A stretch of DNA of 11,029 nucleotides from a virus (lineage: Duplodnaviria > Heunggongvirae > Uroviricota > Caudoviricetes), in IMG/VR virus record IMGVR_UViG_2671181094_000005. One strand, given 5' to 3'. Positions 741 to 11,029 of this stretch are shown piece by piece. The notes below the pieces were generated by a model. That model was not told where the DNA came from. It was given only the letters and a program-made list of their open reading frames with translations, and made no database searches. Position 1 is the stretch's first letter, and the number at the start of each line of letters is the position of its first letter. The position numbers and the translations under genes were made by a program.

Positions 741-3185
741 TCAGCTGATACTGATACCTGCTGTGGATTTCTTCATCACCACAACCAGCAAATCACTGAT
801 ACTGGCTGTGGGATACCAGTCATTTACCAGCCACGCTGATACCGAAAACTCCAGCGTCATGTGACCGTGACCGGCAGGCATATCAATAACACCTGTATAA
901 ACCAGCGTATTATCCAGCGCGGTACGGTTATAAATTTCAGCACCGTTTTTCTTCACTATCAGGCGGCATGACGAATAAATATCGTTATTCTCCCGCTCAT
1001 GTTTAGCGTCACGAAACGCCACCGTGGGAATAACAATCTGCCGGTCAAACGGCTGATCGTCATAAACCCTGACGGTAATGGTCCCTGATGGCCACCGCTC
1101 CGGTGCACGGGAGTCCCGGGGGAAAGCTTTGCCCACTGTTTTAACGAGATCGCCTTCAATCTGGTTCGCAGACAGTTTTCCCAGAACCCGACAGTTTTCA
1201 TTTATCGTGACATTGTTGAGCGTCCCGGCGTTCGCATTCACACTGCCACTGATATCCGCATTTTTCGCCGTCAGTCGCCCGTCCGGTGTAAGGGAAAATG
1301 CAGGAGGATTACCGCCGCTGGTAATGGTGGGAGCCGTCAGGCGTTTCAGGAACACGTCGTTCATGAATATCTGATCACCCTGACCAACAAACATCGGCTT
1401 TGTGTTGCCATTCGCAGGATTAATCATCGCAATCCTGTCTGCCGCCAGCAGCACCTGACTCTGCATTCCTGCTGGCGTATTCTCAATACCGGCACCGATA
1501 CCCGCAATATAAAGGCGTCCGTCCTGCATCTGCTGCAGTTTCACGGCCCACATGCTGTTCAGGTTATTATTTGTATCAACCTGAACCTTCTGTATCTGCT
1601 GGATCGCTGCACTCTGGTCTTCCAGTTTCTTATTGACGGTCTGTGTGATTTCATTGCTGACATCCGTAATGGATGTCCTGATTTCAGCCAGGTCAGGCGC
1701 AAGCTGACCGTTATCAATCTGCGTCCACAGCTCCTGAGCCAGATGGGTTTTCCCTATCTCGCCTTTGAAAAAATCCAGATAGCCGGATGCGTCATCACTC
1801 GGCTGACCAACAGCCTCCACGAATGCCGATTTGCCAACGGTGTTCACACTGCGGATATAAAAGTAATAATCATGGCCCGGTTTGATATTGATACTGGCGG
1901 CTATCCAGTACAGCCCCGCACCAAGGTAGCGGGCTGTGGTTTCAACCTGCCTGATATCGGTAATCCGCGTTTCCGAGAACCAGAACTCAAACTGTACCGT
2001 CGGATCATAAACCGCAAGATGCGGCGTGGCAGTTATCTGAAAATAGCCCGGCGTCAGCTCAATCCGCGACGGTGCTACCGGTGCGGCAATCCGGAACGAT
2101 ACCGACGCCGGATCGCCCTGCTGTCCCCACGCATTTACCGCCCGGACTGTCAGCGTGTACCGTCCCAGCGCCAGTTGCGTGAAGCGGTATGTGGTTTCTG
2201 TCGTCCGGGCCGTGCTGACCAGCCGCTCACTGCCGTCGTCCGCTGCCACGGTCAGGCGAAGCATAAAGCTCACCCCCTTCACCACCTTCGGCGTGTCCCA
2301 GCGGGCCAGTACCTGATACTCCCCGCTGTCTGCGGTGACTTCGGCAGTCAGGTGCTGCACCGCTGGCGGCGTGACACCATTCACCGTGCCGCTCTGGTCG
2401 CCGTCAAAGTGCGCCCCGTTATCCACGATGGCCTCTTTTTCCGGCACATGCTGCACGGCGGTGATGGCATACGTGCCGTCGTCGTTCTCACGGATACTCA
2501 CGCAGCGGAACAGTCGCTGGCGCAGCGTCGGCAGCTTCAGCCCCCATACGCTGTATTCAGCAACACCGTCAGGAACACGGCTCACTTTTACCTTCACGCC
2601 GTCGGTGACGGACTGAACCTCCACGCTGACCGGACTCCCCTGCCCGTCAACCAGGCTTATCAGCGTGGTGCCGGAAGATGGCAGCGTGATTTCACGGTCG
2701 AGCGTCAGCGTCCGGGTCTGGCTGTTTACCGCCAGCACGCGCCCGCCGGTGCTGATACCGGCATAGTCATCATCGCAGATTTCAATGACATCGCCCGGTA
2801 CATGGCGAAGCCCTTCAGCACCCACGCTGAAATCCACGGTCTGCGTCTCCAGCAGTTCCGTTTTAATCAGCCACAGCCCGGCGCGGTGTGCCTGCCCCCG
2901 GCTGGTACAGCCAAAGGCATCCATCTTCGTGACATTACGACCGTAACGGGCAATGGCCTGCGTATCTTCAACAAGCTCTGTCGCCGTCTCCCAGCCGTTG
3001 TTCGGGTCAATCCAGTTCACCTCAACGGCATTATGGCGGTCCTTCAGGGCGCTGAAGCTGTAGCGGAACGGCGCGCCATCATCCGGCATCACCACATTAC
3101 TGCGGTTATAGGTCCACACCTTATCTGATGGTCGGTCCTGCACGAACGTCAGCGTCTGCCCGTTCCATACCGGCATACAGCGCAT
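741..3185 (-). pseudogene. J: Tail tip / host specificity protein J, N-terminally truncated (C-terminal ~815 codons only)
   Basis: Long minus-strand ORF whose translation from [22 protein letters not shown] onward is colinear with roughly residues 318-1132 of lambda gpJ (recalled from memory, identity not computed), including the fibronectin-III-like central region; the last ~130 residues diverge. Upstream of codon MRCMP the same frame hits a stop (3225-3227) and the preceding sequence is terminase-derived in another frame, so the J N-terminal third is absent. The ATG at 3212 in the ORF track is fortuitous. Confidence 0.8.
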
Positions 3186-3186
3186 C

Positions 3187-3519
3187 ACTGGCTTTAAAGG
3201 GATCCGGTTCATTACGGTAGCCGGTCATGGCATCCATGGCTGGCTGAAAATATTCACCGCAGTGCGGACATGGCCAGTACCAGCGGCGGCGGTCACCACG
3301 ATTGTAAAGGGAAAGAATACCAGTCGTCGGTGGCGCTTCATGAGGCGACTTACGTCGCCATTTGCTGTCGCAGATGTCACGTCCCGGCGAGCTCTCCACC
3401 AGAGTCATCCCGGCGGACATAAATGTGGTGGTACGTTTTGAGGCCTGGGAGAAACCATCACCCTCGCTGTCGATATTCTCCGGAAAACGGTCGTAATCGG
3501 TTAAGGCGACAAACCGGTA
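3187..3519 (-). pseudogene. Terminase large subunit (lambda gpA-like) internal fragment
   Basis: Translation ...YRFVALTDYDRFPENIDSEGDGFSQASKR...WYWPCPHCGEYFQP... resembles the middle of lambda gpA (DDDIEQEGSPTFLGDKR ... HVACPHCGEEQYLKFGD, zinc-finger-like CPHCGE motif), recalled from memory. No proper start codon; frame differs from the upstream Nu1-like fragment and the downstream J fragment. The 99-aa track ORF 3121..3420 is the tail of this frame running into J-derived DNA. Confidence 0.55.
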
Positions 3520-5369: not shown

Positions 5370-5575
5370 TTCATTTTCACTTTCTTAAATCTAACGATAG
5401 ACGGCTAACATTTAAGTATTGTGAAATATTATCAAATGTAATCATCATTGATTTACAAAAGATACATTTTGCCCCGAAAGGATTCCTGTCAGAAACATCA
5501 AAAGATGATGTTCTATACTGAGAACCATGGCAACACGGGCATCTAAAGTGAATATGGTTTGTAATATTTTCTACC

Positions 5576-5788
5576 TCAAAGTGCCACAACATGAACAGCC
5601 GCGGGGCCTTTAGGTCCGTTCTCAATACCAAATTCGACTTCCTGATTCTCAGTTAACGTTTTGAAATCGTTGCTCTGAATAGCTGAGAAATGGACAAACA
5701 CATCTTTGCTACCATCTTTCGGCGTGATGAAACCAAAACCTTTTTCAGGGTTAAACCATTTCACTAAACCAGTCATTGTGTTAGACAT
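5576..5788 (-). CDS. cspI: Cold shock protein, CspA family (CspI-like)
   Basis: 70-aa product [70 protein letters not shown] matches recalled CspI almost exactly, with RNP1 (KGFGFI) and RNP2 (VFVHF) motifs. AAAGGTAATA sequence ahead of the start as in cspA. Alternative ATG one codon upstream at 5791. Confidence 0.85.
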
Positions 5789-5938
5789 CATTATTACCTT
5801 TTGAAGAAGTTAGCCCTTGGGCAGAATGGTCCGAAAAAAAATATCAGAGAGAAAAACCAACAAGGAAATCTCAAGAGGTACAAATAATAAAATTATAACA
5901 ATGACTGCTTCAGATAATTTTGTAACAAACCAGAACAC

Positions 5939-5968
5939 CATTAACGCATGATTAACCAACCATAGCAA
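5939..5968 (-). promoter_or_regulatory. Candidate cspA-type promoter (-35 TTGCTA, -10 GTTAAT/TTAATG) preceding a ~145-nt 5' UTR with cold-box-like element
   Basis: Minus strand: TTGCTA (5963-5968), 17-18 nt spacer, then TTAATG (5939-5944), followed by GTGTTCTGGTTTGTTACAAA. This resembles the cspA promoter and cold box (TTGCAT ... CTTAATG CACATCAACGGTTTGACGTACAGA, from memory). The long UTR is typical of cold-shock genes. Confidence 0.4.
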
Positions 5969-6151: not shown

Positions 6152-7179
<1,028 letters not shown>

Positions 7180-7292: not shown

Positions 7293-7553
7293 ATGGATTA
7301 CACAAATCTACCTAAACAAACTTTTGCTGATTTAATCGCACTCAGGCAAGCAGTCGTAGCTCTAATCAACTTGTTGCCGGAGAAGGAAAAGGAATTAGTT
7401 AAAGCGCTTCTTAACAGAACTGCCGCCGATTTTTCATCATATCCACTGACAGATGACCTTGCGGACCTTCCTGAATTAATTGCAGCGTCCGCCAATAAGC
7501 TTACTGAAGAGATTTACCCTCCTCAAAAATCTTCACAAAATTCCTGCGAGTAA
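7293..7553 (+). CDS. Hypothetical small acidic protein (86 aa) on the opposite strand inside the lysis cassette
   Basis: ATG at 7293 preceded by ACAGAGG Shine-Dalgarno at 5-nt spacing; stop at 7551-7553 followed about 20 nt later by a hairpin plus T8. Predicted helical, net acidic. Uses several rare codons (CTA, AGG, AGA) and overlaps the 3' end of the convergent DUF1327 ORF by 53 bp, so coding status is uncertain. Confidence 0.4.
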   Translation: MDYTNLPKQTFADLIALRQAVVALINLLPEKEKELVKALLNRTAADFSSYPLTDDLADLPELIAASANKLTEEIYPPQKSSQNSCE

Positions 7554-8052
7554 CTTCAATGCAATAATCGTAAAACGCCGCAAACTGCTCATCGCGGCGT
7601 TTTTTTTCATCTTCAGAAGGAATCAGCACCGACAATTTTTTATTCAGATCAGCGACGCTGCCCTCCAGTTTTTCAATGGGCGATTCAATATCATCTTTTT
7701 CTGACCGCAATGCCGTCGGTGGCGTCTTCAGAGAACCAGTAATTCTTCCCGGTAGCTTTCCTTTGTAGGTTATCCACACATTCTGCGCCTCTAAAATTAT
7801 GGGGCGCTTTTCCGGCGACTGCTCATCCCCTTCACATAACCCGGCAGCAACATCCAGGAAGACCTGTCTGATGCTCCTTCTGGCTGCTGCCTCATAAAAC
7901 TCCAGCGCGGCACCTTCAACACGGTCCAGCGAGATGTCCAGGTCAAAAATTTCACCGTCAAAGTGTTTTTTGTCCCGTAAGGCTACAGTTACCGCCACTT
8001 TATTCTCAAAATTGCGAACTCCTTTCACAACCAGTTCATAGTCTTGAGTCAT
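7501..8052 (-). CDS. DUF1327 (YdfR-like) lysis-cassette protein, apparently with a C-terminal extension (183 aa)
   Basis: ATG at 8052, 4 nt after the holin stop. The N-terminal ~70 residues (MTQDYELVVKGVRNFENKV...EGAALEFYEAAARRS.RQVF) resemble E. coli YdfR as recalled; the remaining ~110 residues are not recognised. The ORF-track start at 8073 overlaps the holin and is less likely. Confidence 0.6.
   Translation of the reverse strand: MTQDYELVVKGVRNFENKVAVTVALRDKKHFDGEIFDLDISLDRVEGAALEFYEAAARRSIRQVFLDVAAGLCEGDEQSPEKRPIILEAQNVWITYKGKLPGRITGSLKTPPTALRSEKDDIESPIEKLEGSVADLNKKLSVLIPSEDEKKRRDEQFAAFYDYCIEVTRRNFVKIFEEGKSLQ
7575..7607 (+). terminator. Rho-independent terminator-like hairpin after the plus-strand small ORF
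   Basis: Stem ACGCCGC (7575-7581) / GCGGCGT (7594-7600), 12-nt loop, then 8 T (7600-7607). Lies inside the coding sequence of the minus-strand DUF1327 ORF; on the minus strand only 4 U follow the stem. Confidence 0.4.
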
Positions 8053-8056
8053 TGGA

Positions 8057-8272
8057 TTACTCTCTTCTCGCAACCTTACGCCTGTCTTCTTTAATCTTGA
8101 AATAAAGGTTTGTCAGATACGTCAGCATGCCAAATACCAGACTACCCAATACACCTATTGCCGCCCACTGTGAGGGCGTGACTTTATCGAGCAACTGTAA
8201 AAACCAGTAGCCAGCACTGCCTGCAGAGGTGCTGTAGGCGATGCCCGTTGTTAACTTATCCATGGATTTCAT
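8057..8272 (-). CDS. Class II holin, phage 21 S21-like pinholin (71 aa) with dual-start motif
   Basis: [71 protein letters not shown]: two transmembrane segments and a charged C-terminus, colinear with S21/EssD as recalled. Met1-Lys-Ser-Met4 dual-start arrangement (antiholin/holin). Strong GGAGGTGA Shine-Dalgarno 4 nt upstream of the ATG at 8272; the 99-aa track ORF is an upstream extension. Confidence 0.85.
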
Positions 8273-8363
8273 AGCCTCACCTCCGCAGATAACGGATGGT
8301 GTACACGGTTTGGTTCGAAGAAGGAAAGAAGTTACATTAGCGTAAGGCCCGAACATCTATTCA

Positions 8364-8394
8364 AAAAGAAAAACGCCAGCAATTATTCTGGCGT
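8364..8394 (-). terminator. Rho-independent terminator downstream of the AraC-family gene
   Basis: Minus strand: stem ACGCCAG / CTGGCGT (8373-8379 and 8388-8394) with 8-nt loop, followed by TTTCTTTTT. About 70 nt after the regulator stop and about 90 nt before the holin start. Confidence 0.5.
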
Positions 8395-8462: not shown

Positions 8463-9176
8463 CTAAGAAAATCTTGATAAATATTGGTGCGGAGGCACAC
8501 CAAAATATCCTCTAAAAACACTTACAAAATATGATGCATTGTCATACCCGCATATTCCCGCCACCTTGCCGACAGTATGGTTACTGTAGATCAATAATCT
8601 TTGCGCCATCATCATTCGTTCTTCAAGAATTAATTTACTAAACGATAATCCTTCGTCTTTTAATTTTCTTTTTAACAAACTCTCGCTCATATATAATCTT
8701 GAAGATATATCACAAAGTCTCCATGACGCTGAGATATCCGAGTGAATAATAGCCTTAACTTTACAACCTAAGCTATTAAGACTTCCGAACAAAAAACTTT
8801 GCACTATTTTCTCTGAAGATAAGACAGCAAGACATGCAAGTGATATTTGATTTCTAACTACATCCACGGTTTTGCTATCACAATTCAAGCATGCAACCAA
8901 GTTCCTTAACAATGAAAAATCTTCACATTCTACTATCAAGTATGACGGATAAAACCTTCTTACAGAAAAAGGTGAGAGTGTGTAGTTTTTAAAGAAATCA
9001 TTAACTGTTTTCTCCTCAATATCTACGATCATTAGATGATCTGTATTTGACGAAAAAAGATCTTTTAAATTGTATTCAATGAGGACAGCATTTCCTTTTT
9101 TAAACAAAATATCTTCTTTACCAATTCGGACACCAAACGAGTTCAACACCAAAATGATAGAACATATGTATGGCAT
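8463..9176 (-). CDS. AraC/XylS-family transcriptional regulator (AppY/EnvY/Rns-like), AT-rich
   Basis: C-terminal AraC-type double helix-turn-helix (...WRLCDISSRLYMSESLLKRKLKDEGLSFSKLILEERMMMAQRLLIYSNHTVGKVAGICGYDNASYFVSVFRGYFGVPPHQY). N-terminus MPYICSIILVLNSF resembles AppY MDYVCSVVFICQSF (from memory). Most likely start is the ATG at 9176 with AGGTGGA Shine-Dalgarno; the ORF-track start at 9185 is a GTG. Strongly AT-rich with a ~400-bp AT-rich upstream region. Confidence 0.8.
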   Translation of the reverse strand: MPYICSIILVLNSFGVRIGKEDILFKKGNAVLIEYNLKDLFSSNTDHLMIVDIEEKTVNDFFKNYTLSPFSVRRFYPSYLIVECEDFSLLRNLVACLNCDSKTVDVVRNQISLACLAVLSSEKIVQSFLFGSLNSLGCKVKAIIHSDISASWRLCDISSRLYMSESLLKRKLKDEGLSFSKLILEERMMMAQRLLIYSNHTVGKVAGICGYDNASYFVSVFRGYFGVPPHQYLSRFS

Positions 9177-9582
9177 ATTATCCACCTGATATCATTGGGG
9201 TTACACCAGGTAAGTATAGGTGGAAAATCAATATTCGCCAGTTCAACAATAAGGAAAATCTCATTGCATCACAACTATAAAACCATGTGTTTAACTCACA
9301 AAAAACAAATCATTAAACTAATCTGTTATATTATAATAGCTGCGTGCAATAATAATATTATATGCTCTTTATATTCACTTGAAATATCTTCATATAAAAA
9401 CAGATTGAATAAAATCTTTTGGGGCTGGTATGTTTACCAACATTAAATTGCATCTCAATGTTTTCTTTAGCGTGAACAGGATTTTTATAAAAACTGACAC
9501 TATGAGCATCATAGCGTAGTTTTTACGATTGTAAATATCCTGCATACAGGAACTCATCACTTTCAGATGATATCGCATACAG

Positions 9583-10542
9583 TTAATTCACCATCAGTCT
9601 TAGAGCCAGTTCTTCCGGATAGGGATCGAAGTAATTCTGTGTAAGCAAGTAATCATTAGGATACTCACCCAGATAATGCTTCAGCAGAGTCAACGGCGCA
9701 AGAAGAGGCAATGTGCCAAAGCGATAGTTAAGTATAACCTCGCTCAACTCTTTACGCTGGCGTGTACTTAAGTAATTACTAAAATACCCCTGTATATGCA
9801 TCAGCACATTCGTGTGATTTTTACGTGATGCTGGTTTTCTGAGAATCGCCATCAGATTATCACGATACACCTCAAAGTATGATTCAAGGTCCGCCCACTC
9901 GTGTATTGCAGCCACAAATGGTCCCATATCTTTATAGCCTGCCTGGCTATGCGCCAACAACTGAAGCTTATAACGACTATGAAAAGCTAATAACTCTCTT
10001 CTTGATAATTTCTCCTTGTAAAGGTGATTGAGCTCATGCAAAGCAAAAACTCTTTCAATAAAATTCTCACGAAGCACTGGATCATGTAATCGCCCATCCT
10101 CTTCAACCGGTAGCCAGGAAAACTTTTCCATCAAAGTGCTCGTAAATAGTCCCACTCCATCTTTACGACCTCGATTACCATTTTCATCATAGACACGCAC
10201 GCGCTCCATGCCACAGCTGGGAGATTTAGCACAAACCACAAACCCCGATACATCCTTTAATTTGTCCATATAAGAACGACTAAACTCTGTCATTCTCTCT
10301 GTCACATCCTCATTCTGGTCGTGGCTGAAACACATCCGTATATTTCCTTGCTTCGAGCGCACAAGTCGTAGAGCAGGACGCGGAACTGGCAGCCCTATAG
10401 CCATTTCCGGACATACTGGTCTGAATGTTACCCATTCCACTAATTTGTCCATTAAAAAGTCATCTCTTTTGTGACCACCATCAAAACGAACAGCAGAACC
10501 GCCCAAACAACCGCTGATCCCAATCACAGGTTTTTTTATCAT
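9583..10542 (-). CDS. DUF523 (TudS-like thio-nucleobase desulfidase) fused to DUF1722 (YbgA-like) protein, 319 aa
   Basis: N-terminal half carries three Cys in the contexts expected for the [4Fe-4S]-binding DUF523/TudS fold (GISGCLGG, PVCPE, KSPSCGM); the C-terminal half is a helical DUF1722-like domain. ATG at 10542 with GGGGGAGG upstream. Domain assignment is from motif recognition, not a profile search. Confidence 0.7.
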   Translation of the reverse strand: MIKKPVIGISGCLGGSAVRFDGGHKRDDFLMDKLVEWVTFRPVCPEMAIGLPVPRPALRLVRSKQGNIRMCFSHDQNEDVTERMTEFSRSYMDKLKDVSGFVVCAKSPSCGMERVRVYDENGNRGRKDGVGLFTSTLMEKFSWLPVEEDGRLHDPVLRENFIERVFALHELNHLYKEKLSRRELLAFHSRYKLQLLAHSQAGYKDMGPFVAAIHEWADLESYFEVYRDNLMAILRKPASRKNHTNVLMHIQGYFSNYLSTRQRKELSEVILNYRFGTLPLLAPLTLLKHYLGEYPNDYLLTQNYFDPYPEELALRLMVN

Positions 10543-10732
10543 TTCCTCCCCCTTGACTAATTCATTAACACATAAACTTTGTAGTGCACGGACTAAATTG
10601 CCTTTCTGGCTTCATCACTGACAATTTTTCTGTTATTGACTATTCCTAATATAGTAGGAAAGTTCTTTAAGTGATCGGTCGTACTCATCTATCTTTCATA
10701 CTTACTCTCAACTATCAAAAGTACAGGATTTA

Positions 10733-11029
10733 GGTGATGCTGCCAACTTACTGATTTAGTGTATGATGGTGTTTTTGAGGTGCTCCAGTGGCTTCTGTTT
10801 CTATCAGCTGTCCCTCCTGTTCAGCTACTGACGGGGTGGTGCGTAACGGCAAAAGCACCGCCGGACATCAGCGCTATCTCTGCTCTCACTGCCGTAAAAC
10901 ATGGCAACTGCAGTTCACTTACACCGCTTCTCAACCCGGTACGCACCAGAAAATCATTGATATGGCCATGAATGGCGTTGGATGCCGGGCAACTGCCCGC
11001 ATTATGGGCGTTGGCCTCAACACGATTTT
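10733..11029 (+). mobile_element. IS1 insertion sequence, left end (partial; continues beyond the window)
   Basis: Sequence from 10733 (GGTGATGCTGCCAACTTACTGATTTAGTGTATGATGGTGTTTTTGAGGTGCTCCAGTGGCTTCTG...) matches the IS1 left inverted repeat and the 5' part of insA as recalled. Only the left ~300 bp of the 768-bp element is in the window. Confidence 0.9.
10788..11029 (+). CDS. insA: IS1 InsA (transposition repressor / N-terminal part of InsAB' transposase), partial
   Basis: GTG start at 10788; translation (M)[79 protein letters not shown]... matches IS1 InsA with its zinc-finger Cys pairs. Truncated by the window edge. Confidence 0.85.

Follow-up and report, generated by a model that had tools for sequence, protein, structure and literature searches.

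The locus at positions 9583-10732 of an 11,029-nucleotide stretch of viral DNA (the window, hereafter) raises the question of which enzyme its gene encodes, on which thiolated substrate this enzyme acts, and whether the gene belongs to the phage or to a flanking chromosome. [quoted passage not shown] The window gene very probably (probability of roughly 0.85) encodes a RudS-family [4Fe-4S] desulfidase that converts s4U in tRNA to U and is carried as cargo by lambdoid phages. The domains, residues, fold, orthology and genomic context of this rudS gene were established in the present analysis, and the activity of its product would by analogy be that of a published enzyme to which it is 92% identical.

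The rudS coding sequence occupies positions 9583-10542 of the minus strand, where the open reading frame list gives an uninterrupted frame for 319 aa plus a stop. It is 100% identical to the gene in prophage L001, the product of which (WP_000592549.1) carries the RefSeq name 'YbgA family protein'. The polypeptide combines PF04463 (2-thiour_desulf, i.e., TudS, formerly DUF523) in its N-terminal part (residues 7-149, positions 10096-10524, minus strand; E 5.8e-40, 137 bits against a gathering cutoff of 34.7) with PF08349 (DUF1722) in its C-terminal part (residues 192-309, positions 9616-9969, minus strand; E 9.4e-40, 136 bits against a gathering cutoff of 22.5), and both Pfam profiles were matched over their full length (1-141 of 141 and 1-117 of 117, respectively). 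The fusion of a TudS-type (DUF523) domain with DUF1722, which had been read from the sequence in the preliminary description, is thereby borne out with E-values of about 1e-40 for each domain.

Three cysteines, in the contexts GISGC12LGG, PVC44PE and SPSC110GM, had been proposed to match the [4Fe-4S] ligands of TudS, and in a phmmer alignment Cys12, Cys44 and Cys110 indeed pair with Cys10, Cys43 and Cys104 of TudS structure 6z92. They are invariant across 32 homologues, and their numbering equals that in RudS_vir and RudS_ST. Moreover, Glu46, Ser107/Ser109 and Arg19 pair with Glu45, Ser101/Ser103 and Arg17, the catalytic Glu, the two Ser and the phosphate-binding Arg of TudS (PMC10611767). Arg55 lies 11 residues past the second Cys, at the same spacing as in RudS_KT, in which Glu51, Ser111 and Ser113 are catalytic and Arg60 is conserved (PMC11417400). 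The tRNA-binding residues of the latter enzyme (Arg24, Tyr25, Asn26, Ser243 and Arg244; PMC11417400) would correspond to Arg19, Phe20, Asp21, Ser239 and Arg240 if the offset seen at the Cys motifs is kept constant. This mapping places one Asn-to-Asp difference at Asp21, and a Tyr-to-Phe change at the tRNA-binding Tyr leaves the enzyme active (PMC11417400). The Ser239-Arg240 pair, which would take the position of RudS_KT Ser243-Arg244 in DUF1722, is likewise invariant in the 32 homologues, and comparison with phage copies revealed purifying selection on rudS (dN/dS of 0.14 and 0.24).

The fold agrees with this domain assignment. In the AF2 model of the window protein (mean pLDDT of 74, pTM of 0.75, with residues 14-25 and 282-319 below 50), the N-terminal half matched TudS structures 6z96, 6z92 and 6z93 with a Foldseek probability of 1.00 and target-normalised TM-scores of 0.66-0.70, and the best five matches in the Foldseek PDB search were all TudS chains, the next match having an E-value of 0.12. 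The DUF1722 half was modelled as all-helical, and no solved DUF1722 structure was found by sequence or fold search. TudS (DUF523Vcz, PDB 6Z92/6Z96) thus shares with the window protein the fold, the three Cys ligands, the Glu, the two Ser and the phosphate-binding Arg, but it is a single domain of approximately 166 residues, with approximately 26% identity to the window protein over the first half of the latter. TudS acts on free bases and nucleotides (thiouracil, 4-thio-UMP), whereas the window protein has an added DUF1722 half of 170 aa, and in RudS this added half redirects the activity to tRNA (PMC11417400). Membership of the stand-alone TudS class (a single domain of approximately 150-170 aa) was rejected on basis of the length of 319 aa, the second domain and the 26% identity. 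Identity with YbgA (b0707) of E. coli K-12, a stand-alone DUF1722 protein encoded upstream of phr that lacks the catalytic TudS domain, was rejected as well; the YbgA model NF007549 matches only aa 161-315 (E 5e-56), and its 189 bits remain below the equivalog cutoff of 237 bits, so the window protein is a paralogue of YbgA. Overexpression of YbgA leaves tRNA s4U unchanged (PMC11417400).

The closest enzyme of published function is RudS_vir, which is gp66 (H3V29_gp66) of Escherichia phage 1H12 (NC_049947), also of 319 aa and 92% identical to the window protein; the two share Cys12, Cys44, Cys110 and both domains, and differ at 26 amino acids. RudS of phage IdasGreatGrand is closer still (97% amino acid identity), and the chromosomal RudS proteins of Citrobacter, Klebsiella, Enterobacter and Salmonella are 69-76% identical to the window protein, including RudS_ST of Salmonella LT2 (ORF319, STM1389), which has the same length of 319 aa and the same Cys numbering. 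RudS_vir and five other RudS enzymes lowered the s4U content of tRNA in E. coli, Cys mutants were inactive, and RudS_KT removed sulfur from tRNA in vitro as a purified protein (PMC11417400). The preliminary description had considered the role of DUF1722 not established and thiolated tRNA as a target speculative, and both statements are out of date, as DUF1722 has been assigned to tRNA binding via docking and mutagenesis, and RudS desulfurates tRNA s4U (PMC11417400).

By homology, Cys12, Cys44 and Cys110 of the window protein would hold the [4Fe-4S] cluster, the fourth, ligand-free iron of which would bind the thione sulfur of s4U, while Glu46, Ser107 and Ser109 would aid hydrolytic removal of the sulfur via a [4Fe-5S] intermediate. 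The half formed by the helical DUF1722 domain would dock on the anticodon arm of the tRNA, which implies that the enzyme would act on an entire tRNA instead of a free base, and desulfidation would restore uridine at tRNA position 8.

The alternative that the enzyme is mainly TudS-like, and serves the salvage of free thiolated pyrimidines (4-thiouracil, or 4-thio-UMP from tRNA breakdown) instead of de-modification of intact tRNA, is consistent with the presence of every TudS catalytic residue in the catalytic half. Furthermore, among the RudS enzymes tested RudS_vir had the shortest lag on 4-thiouracil, and its tRNA desulfidation was lower than that of the other RudS enzymes despite good protein levels (PMC11417400), on which ground tRNA specificity may be lower in RudS of the phage clade. 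Of the 209 positions that are well conserved (at least 90%) among 29 chromosomal homologues, 13 also differ in this clade. Its substitutions include Thr14, which adjoins the ligand Cys12, as well as Arg71, Pro76, Pro142, Gly178 and Arg267. Against salvage, rescue of a uracil auxotroph, as achieved by TudS, was obtained with none of the tested RudS enzymes, none of them supported growth on 2-thiouracil, and all of them, including RudS_vir, reduced tRNA s4U (PMC11417400). The intact DUF1722 domain with its invariant Ser-Arg pair, within a gene that is under purifying selection as a whole, argues in the same direction. Nucleotide salvage, which the preliminary description had put forward as a role, has thus become less likely because of the uracil auxotroph result, and as the main function it is improbable.

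Enzymes directed at modifications of tRNA or nucleic acids are common in phages, and the phage context alone would suit a different thiolated target in nucleic acid, for instance s2U or s2C in tRNA or a modification of phage or host, with a conceivable part in phage-host conflict. This reading is very improbable, as 2-thiocytidine was unchanged upon RudS induction and growth on 2-thiouracil was not obtained (PMC11417400), and as the closest relatives, at 70-76% identity, are ordinary chromosomal RudS proteins.

The genomic position of rudS was established by comparison with sequenced phages and prophages. The order Q antiterminator, lipocalin gene (on the opposite strand), rudS, AraC-type regulator gene and holin-lysozyme-Rz is kept in phages 1H12 and IdasGreatGrand, and the same order from Q to holin was found in prophages that carry three rudS alleles (100, 97 and 90% nucleotide identity). 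In 1H12, IdasGreatGrand and the prophages L001, L084, L085 and L087-L096, rudS lies on the late-gene strand in the slot between Q and holin. A location in the chromosomal flank, or at the prophage boundary, was rejected because the gene is present inside sequenced phages between Q and holin. The gene is thus prophage cargo in the variable Q-to-holin slot of lambdoid phages, as the preliminary description had supposed, and not core chromosome; the locus was found in approximately 19% of complete E. coli genomes, and 17,794 indexed blocks of the assembly collection contain exactly the window RudS protein. Within the window, IS1 conceals the Q side.

Lambdoid phages carry cargo genes ('morons') in the slot from Q to holin, an example being stx in Stx phages, and rudS resembles such cargo in its Q-holin position, its late-gene strand, its placement after a terminator-like hairpin located past Q, its own flanking terminator-like hairpins and a composition unlike that of its neighbours. 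Unlike the stx toxin genes, the present cargo comprises an eraser of a tRNA modification, a lipocalin and an AraC-type regulator. Chromosomal enterobacterial rudS genes differ from the phage copy in that only the latter sits in a phage late region, and in that a MerR-family regulator is encoded beside rudS of Salmonella and E. cloacae (PMC11417400) and none near the phage copy.

Downstream of rudS, a terminator-like hairpin was detected by consensus scan at positions 9497-9517 (minus strand), 66 nt beyond the rudS stop, overlapping with a promoter-like site at 9508-9535 (TTTACA-16-TATGAT), from which the AraC-type gene could be transcribed; both elements recur in L001 and 1H12. The AraC-family regulator gene (8463-9185, minus strand; HTH_18 and HTH_AraC, 33% GC) encodes a protein for which YdeO is the closest NCBIfam model, with a score far under the cutoff of that model. 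It is located downstream of rudS in L001, 1H12, IdasGreatGrand, L084 and L085 as well, and its product is only 76% identical between the window and 1H12. A second terminator-like hairpin from the consensus scan (8373-8394, minus strand), which is conserved in L001 and 1H12, lies in the gap between this gene and that for the class II holin (8057-8356, minus strand; PF04971, E 9e-34; essD/essQ in relatives), with which the lysis cassette starts. Relatives annotate the holin in a shorter form of 71 aa (8057-8272). The cassette continues with the lysozyme gene (6646-7179, minus strand; PF00959) and an Rz-like DUF2514 gene (6152-6649, minus strand; PF10721), a region annotated rrrQ/rzpQ in L001. 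The earlier placement of rudS next to the lysis cassette is imprecise, as the AraC-family gene intervenes before the holin. On the model of Stx phages, RNA genes were sought near rudS; no tRNA genes were found in the window by ARAGORN, and an Rfam search at gathering threshold, which found no riboswitch or sRNA near rudS, detected only a cspA thermoregulator elsewhere in the window.

The cassette of 1H12 is arranged like that of the window (Q, lipocalin, rudS, HTH regulator and holin-endolysin-Rz), but the window copy resides in a defective prophage, in which IS1 takes the place of the junction with lipocalin. Of 80 enterobacterial chromosomal loci, 20 show linkage of the lipocalin gene to rudS; this gene directly adjoins rudS in the Kluyvera chromosome, and in Enterobacter it is separated from rudS by MerR/MlrA-like and transthyretin genes, the arrangement MerR (MlrA-like)-transthyretin-rudS being found in Enterobacter mori (L017). 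Because the pair also occurs together in the chromosomes of Kluyvera and Enterobacter, it is probable that lipocalin and rudS were taken up jointly from an enterobacterial chromosome, and that the MerR-type regulator of Enterobacter did not come with them. As the phage copy has lost this regulator, its regulation must differ.

In intact phages, rudS would be transcribed from the late side. The consensus scan revealed a candidate promoter-like site at the Q end and, between Q and lipocalin, a terminator-like hairpin with a 9-bp stem and a T-run that is conserved in L001 and 1H12. Since rudS follows this candidate late promoter and the candidate terminator, and shares the strand of Q and the lysis genes, late transcription that depends on Q is expected to extend across it. 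In lambda, the Q-modified RNA polymerase reads through terminators.

In the window, IS1 would separate rudS from this late-promoter route. The left end of IS1 (IRL and the start of insA; 10733-11029, plus strand) was recognized by the InsA domains Zn_ribbon_InsA (E 1e-21) and HTH_Tnp_IS1 (E 2e-24) in the frame that starts from GTG at 10788, and the match is annotated as IS1A in thousands of E. coli records. The exact rudS-IS1 joint was absent, as one piece, from the complete E. coli genomes searched. The claim that the locus is bounded by IS1 stands for one side only, from position 10733, since the window ends inside the element, and the claim that the IS1 end lies 190 bp upstream of the start codon proved exact (10543-10732, 190 nt). 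These 190 nt (minus strand) represent the complete native lipocalin-rudS intergenic region and are identical to IS1-free L001 up to the joint, which alignment with IS1-free relatives places 2 nt upstream of the divergent lipocalin ATG. As IS1 inserted there, the whole intergenic region stays with rudS, and the suggestion that the native promoter had been displaced was rejected. IS1 only interrupts transcription that would reach rudS from the phage late promoter, itself a candidate from the consensus scan.

The retained region (35% GC) contains a strong ribosome binding site (GGAGG, 10545-10549). The consensus scan detected no sigma-70 match of at least 9 of 12 positions upstream of rudS, the weak promoter-like pair being TTGAGA (10706-10711) and GATGAG (10684-10689) with a 16-nt spacer. 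At the same place 1H12 scores 9 of 12, the -10-like hexamer being GATGAT in the phages versus GATGAG in the window. An outward-facing hybrid promoter at the IS1 terminus was not supported; the IRL sequence TTGGCA faces rudS, but the best -10 hexamer (TACTTT, 17 nt away) matches only 3 of 6 positions and the scan was empty there. For a MerR-type or other operator, the palindrome TTCCTA-N6-TAGGAA upstream of rudS, with 6-bp arms, is a weak candidate, and one arm is mutated in IdasGreatGrand.

With no convincing sigma-70 promoter in the 190 nt and the late-promoter route blocked by IS1, rudS in the window may be barely expressed. An extreme form of this view, in which the prophage is decaying and carries a competent rudS as a silent passenger, unexpressed because it is cut off from its late promoter and has no strong promoter of its own, is rather unlikely. 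It draws on the prophage being a remnant, in which a terminase fragment adjoins a J tail-fibre fragment, on the position of IS1 between rudS and the place that lipocalin, terminator-like hairpin and Q take in relatives, on the low-GC upstream region with its GATGAG hexamer, and on the split rudS copies of REL606 (B-lineage; IS3) and KMi012 (IS1). Insertion sequences have struck the rudS cassette repeatedly. Against it, the open reading frame is intact and identical in many strains, its dN/dS ratios are well below 1, the ribosome binding site and the full native intergenic region are kept, and IS1 need not block a Q-modified polymerase, provided that Q persists beyond the window.

The function of the rudS family and of its phage representative has already been published, and no question is left open by the gene as such. 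What the phage gains from the enzyme is a more tentative matter. UV is a classic inducer of lambdoid prophages, and s4U8 is a photosensor in tRNA, the crosslinking of which triggers growth delay and the stringent response. Lambdoid phages might conceivably use RudS as a late-expressed eraser of this host tRNA modification, and phage or host could benefit from, e.g., a reduction in the tRNA crosslinking and growth delay that UVA induces. The slot that rudS occupies is used by Stx phages for their toxin genes, which predicts expression coupled to induction. If this doubtful role were true, transcription of rudS together with the lysis genes under Q, or low expression in the lysogen, could sustain translation in irradiated cells, phage-clade substitutions might tune the substrate range, and rudS would be a trait of lysogenic conversion or of lytic fitness carried by approximately one fifth of E. 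coli genomes. No literature linking RudS to prophages was found in a literature search, and E. coli has been described as lacking RudS (PMC11417400), whereas prophage-borne rudS is present in approximately 19% of the complete genomes of this species. Carriage of rudS, as well as its split copy in REL606, therefore matters when s4U, UVA-induced growth delay or tRNA modification profiles are studied in different E. coli strains.

The rudS gene of the window (9583-10542, minus strand; 319 codons in the ORF listing), of which the ATG is preceded by a GGAGG ribosome-binding site at 5 nt distance, is a real, intact, and well-conserved gene of a family that was characterised in 2024. As the preliminary description had proposed, it encodes a TudS-type DUF523-DUF1722 fusion, since a single ORF matches both PF04463 (2-thiouracil desulfurase, formerly DUF523; residues 7-149, E 5.8e-40) and PF08349 (DUF1722; residues 192-309, E 9.4e-40) over the full length of the Pfam profiles. 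The three cysteine contexts cited there are all present, and alignment by phmmer with the stand-alone desulfidase TudS (PDB 6z92, E 8e-4), the only match among PDB sequences, pairs Cys12, Cys44, and Cys110 with TudS Cys10, Cys43, and Cys104, the three [4Fe-4S] cluster ligands (PMC10611767). The same alignment pairs Glu46, Ser107, and Ser109 with the catalytic TudS residues Glu45, Ser101, and Ser103, and Arg19 with the phosphate-binding Arg17 (PMC10611767). An AlphaFold2 model built with 31 homologues as input (mean pLDDT 74, pTM 0.75) had TudS chains only as its best five PDB matches in Foldseek (probability 1.00, TM-score normalised to target 0.66-0.70), the first non-TudS match having an E-value of 0.12; for the helical C-terminal half, phmmer and Foldseek found no solved relative in the PDB. 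Moreover, rudS is under purifying selection, with dN/dS values of 0.14 and 0.24 relative to the copies of the Escherichia phages 1H12 and IdasGreatGrand. One E. coli record encodes a 403-aa protein (P0002) that carries a GGDEF domain (PF00990) in addition to DUF523 and DUF1722, with 98% identity to the window protein across 92% of the query; its probable origin is a rearrangement or a chimeric assembly.

The name RudS was given to TudS-DUF1722 fusions by Jamontas et al. (2024, NAR; PMC11417400), who reported that RudS overexpression decreased tRNA 4-thiouridine in E. coli 4.7- to 26-fold, that cysteine mutation abolished the activity, that purified RudS_KT desulfurated tRNA in vitro, that DUF1722 binds the tRNA anticodon region (from docking and mutagenesis), and that RudS_KT overexpression lessened the UVA-induced growth delay. 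Because of these results, the earlier view of the DUF1722 role as not established, and of action on thiolated tRNA as speculative, is outdated. The enzymes tested included RudS_vir, which is gp66 of phage 1H12 and carries Cys12, Cys44, and Cys110 (PMC11417400). Across its full 319 residues the window protein shares 92% identity with gp66, and it shares 97% with the IdasGreatGrand copy; a near-identical phage copy has thus already been assayed. Transfer of the essential or important RudS_KT residues by a constant offset places them at Cys12, Cys44, Cys110, Glu46, Arg55, Ser107, and Ser109, as well as Arg19, Phe20, Asp21, Ser239, and Arg240, most of which are invariant among 32 homologues. RudS_vir was well expressed, yet its tRNA desulfidation was lower than that of the other RudS enzymes, and its lag on 4-thiouracil was the shortest (PMC11417400). 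Phage-clade RudS deviates at 13 of 209 positions that are well conserved among 29 chromosomal homologues, among them Thr14, which lies two positions after the ligand Cys12. The phage enzymes may be partly shifted to small substrates.

Comparison of genomic context across strains identified rudS as prophage cargo rather than chromosomal flank. In 1H12 and IdasGreatGrand the gene order is Q antiterminator, lipocalin, rudS, AraC-type HTH gene, holin, endolysin, and Rz, with Q on the rudS strand and the lipocalin gene on the opposite strand. This order recurs in L001, an IS1-free prophage with a 100% identical rudS, at ten more places encoding the exact window protein, and in prophages with rudS alleles of 97% and 90% nucleotide identity, which have differing lambdoid backgrounds and intact packaging and head genes. 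The rudS locus is accessory and not core, because only 1266 of 5426 complete E. coli genomes match it and 1042 keep at least 80% of it, whereas E. coli has been stated to be without RudS (PMC11417400). The reported location next to the lysis cassette needs a small correction, in that the AraC-family gene (8463-9185, minus strand) stands between rudS and the holin gene.

Insertion sequences have a hot spot in the Q-to-holin cassette, where IS1, IS2, IS3, or an IS5-like element lies in the Q/lipocalin gap, inside rudS, in the rudS/AraC gap, or in place of the AraC gene, depending on the strain (window 10543-10732, L089, L090, L091, L094, L095, and L096). In E. coli B REL606 (NC_012967.1, 1614655-1616875) rudS is split by IS3 after approximately 49 codons, and in strain KMi012 by IS1. 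BL21 records match the locus in separate parts only, consistent with a disruption as in REL606; BL21(DE3) was the expression host in the RudS study (PMC11417400).

In the window, the IS1 left end extends from 10733 to the window end, InsA reads from a GTG at 10788 with both its Pfam domains matched, and megablast matches this part to stretches annotated as IS1A in E. coli records numbering in the thousands. The interval from the rudS ATG to IS1 is exactly 190 nt, as described before, although rudS is bounded by IS1 on one side only. The exact rudS-IS1 joint was found in none of the 5426 complete E. coli genomes. The suggested displacement of the native promoter did not hold: the upstream region is identical to that of IS1-free copies as far as the joint, and the whole intergenic region stays with rudS because the lipocalin ATG of those copies lies 2 nt beyond it. 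The gene that is severed from its promoter, or lost, is instead that for the lipocalin. In a consensus scan of these 190 nt, no sigma-70 match reached 9/12; 1H12 scores 9/12 at the same spot (TTGAGA-16-GATGAT), where the window has GATGAG. Between Q and lipocalin, L001 and 1H12 have in common a promoter-like site where Q ends and, as a second element, a strong terminator-like hairpin (9-bp stem and T-run), the expected layout of a lambdoid late promoter and terminator, and rudS lies downstream on the late strand. This cargo slot is the one in which Stx phages carry stx. In intact phages, Q-modified polymerase would transcribe rudS, the AraC gene, and then the lysis genes by read-through, a path that IS1 would break in the window.

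The window prophage is a deletion remnant from which all head and most tail genes are absent. A fragment of the large terminase subunit (3121-3420) directly adjoins tail-fibre protein J, of which the last 823 residues remain (741-3212), and next comes a Lom/Ail outer-membrane protein gene of full length (74-673). The Rfam scan of the window yielded only a full-length match to the cspA-type thermoregulator (RF01766, 109 bits, 5549-5946, minus strand), spanning from upstream of a cspI-like cold-shock gene (CSD domain, 5576-5791, minus strand) through most of its coding sequence. Between holin and lysozyme (7293-8073), the DUF1327 (ydfR) ORF has 190 aa rather than approximately 103, and an 86-aa ORF without Pfam match (7293-7553) lies on the opposite strand. 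REL606 has this hypothetical gene too, beside a ydfR annotated as truncated, and a small insertion within the lysis cassette is therefore suggested.

The AraC-type gene, which in the phage cassette always follows rudS directly, was acquired separately. Its GC content is 33% versus 43% for rudS, its product diverges faster (76% versus 92% amino acid identity between window and 1H12), and IS1 replaces it in one strain (L095). The gene is absent from the chromosomal rudS loci: its sole match in the 80 searched, L039, is a 3.2-kb contig binned as Candidatus Nanosynbacter that holds the prophage cassette of E. coli (rudS 92%, AraC gene 85%, holin 87%). Both this contig and L008, binned as uncultured Clostridiales with an enterobacterial-type RudS (73%), probably represent binning errors in public MAGs. 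The nearest NCBIfam models of the AraC-type protein are YdeO, HilD, and GadX, all far under cutoff, and it might be akin to the prophage AraC-like regulators of acid resistance and type III secretion PsrA, PsrB, PatE, and AppY.

The closest chromosomal RudS proteins (319 aa, 69-76% identity) are encoded by Citrobacter, Klebsiella, Enterobacter, Serratia, and Salmonella, and a second enterobacterial clade shares 56-61% identity with the window protein. A phage-type lipocalin (71-80% identity, tblastn) lies beside rudS in 20 of the 80 chromosomal loci. In Kluyvera (L033, 5352-6960) lipocalin (minus strand) and rudS are immediate, divergent neighbours, which is also the phage arrangement, whereas Enterobacter mori (L017, 4021-6960) has between lipocalin (minus strand) and rudS a MerR/MlrA-like regulator, with MlrA helical and C-terminal domains, and a transthyretin/HIUase-family gene, both on the rudS strand; the phage cassette lacks MerR. 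MerR-family regulators beside rudS have been tied to possible light-inducible expression (PMC11417400). Because of this chromosomal linkage, the lipocalin-rudS pair was probably taken from a chromosome as one unit without the MerR regulator. The literature searched contained no paper that ties RudS to prophages. Modestly new are the late-region cargo position of rudS in lambdoid phages, its presence in roughly one in five complete E. coli genomes, and its probable co-capture with the lipocalin gene and loss of the MerR regulator.
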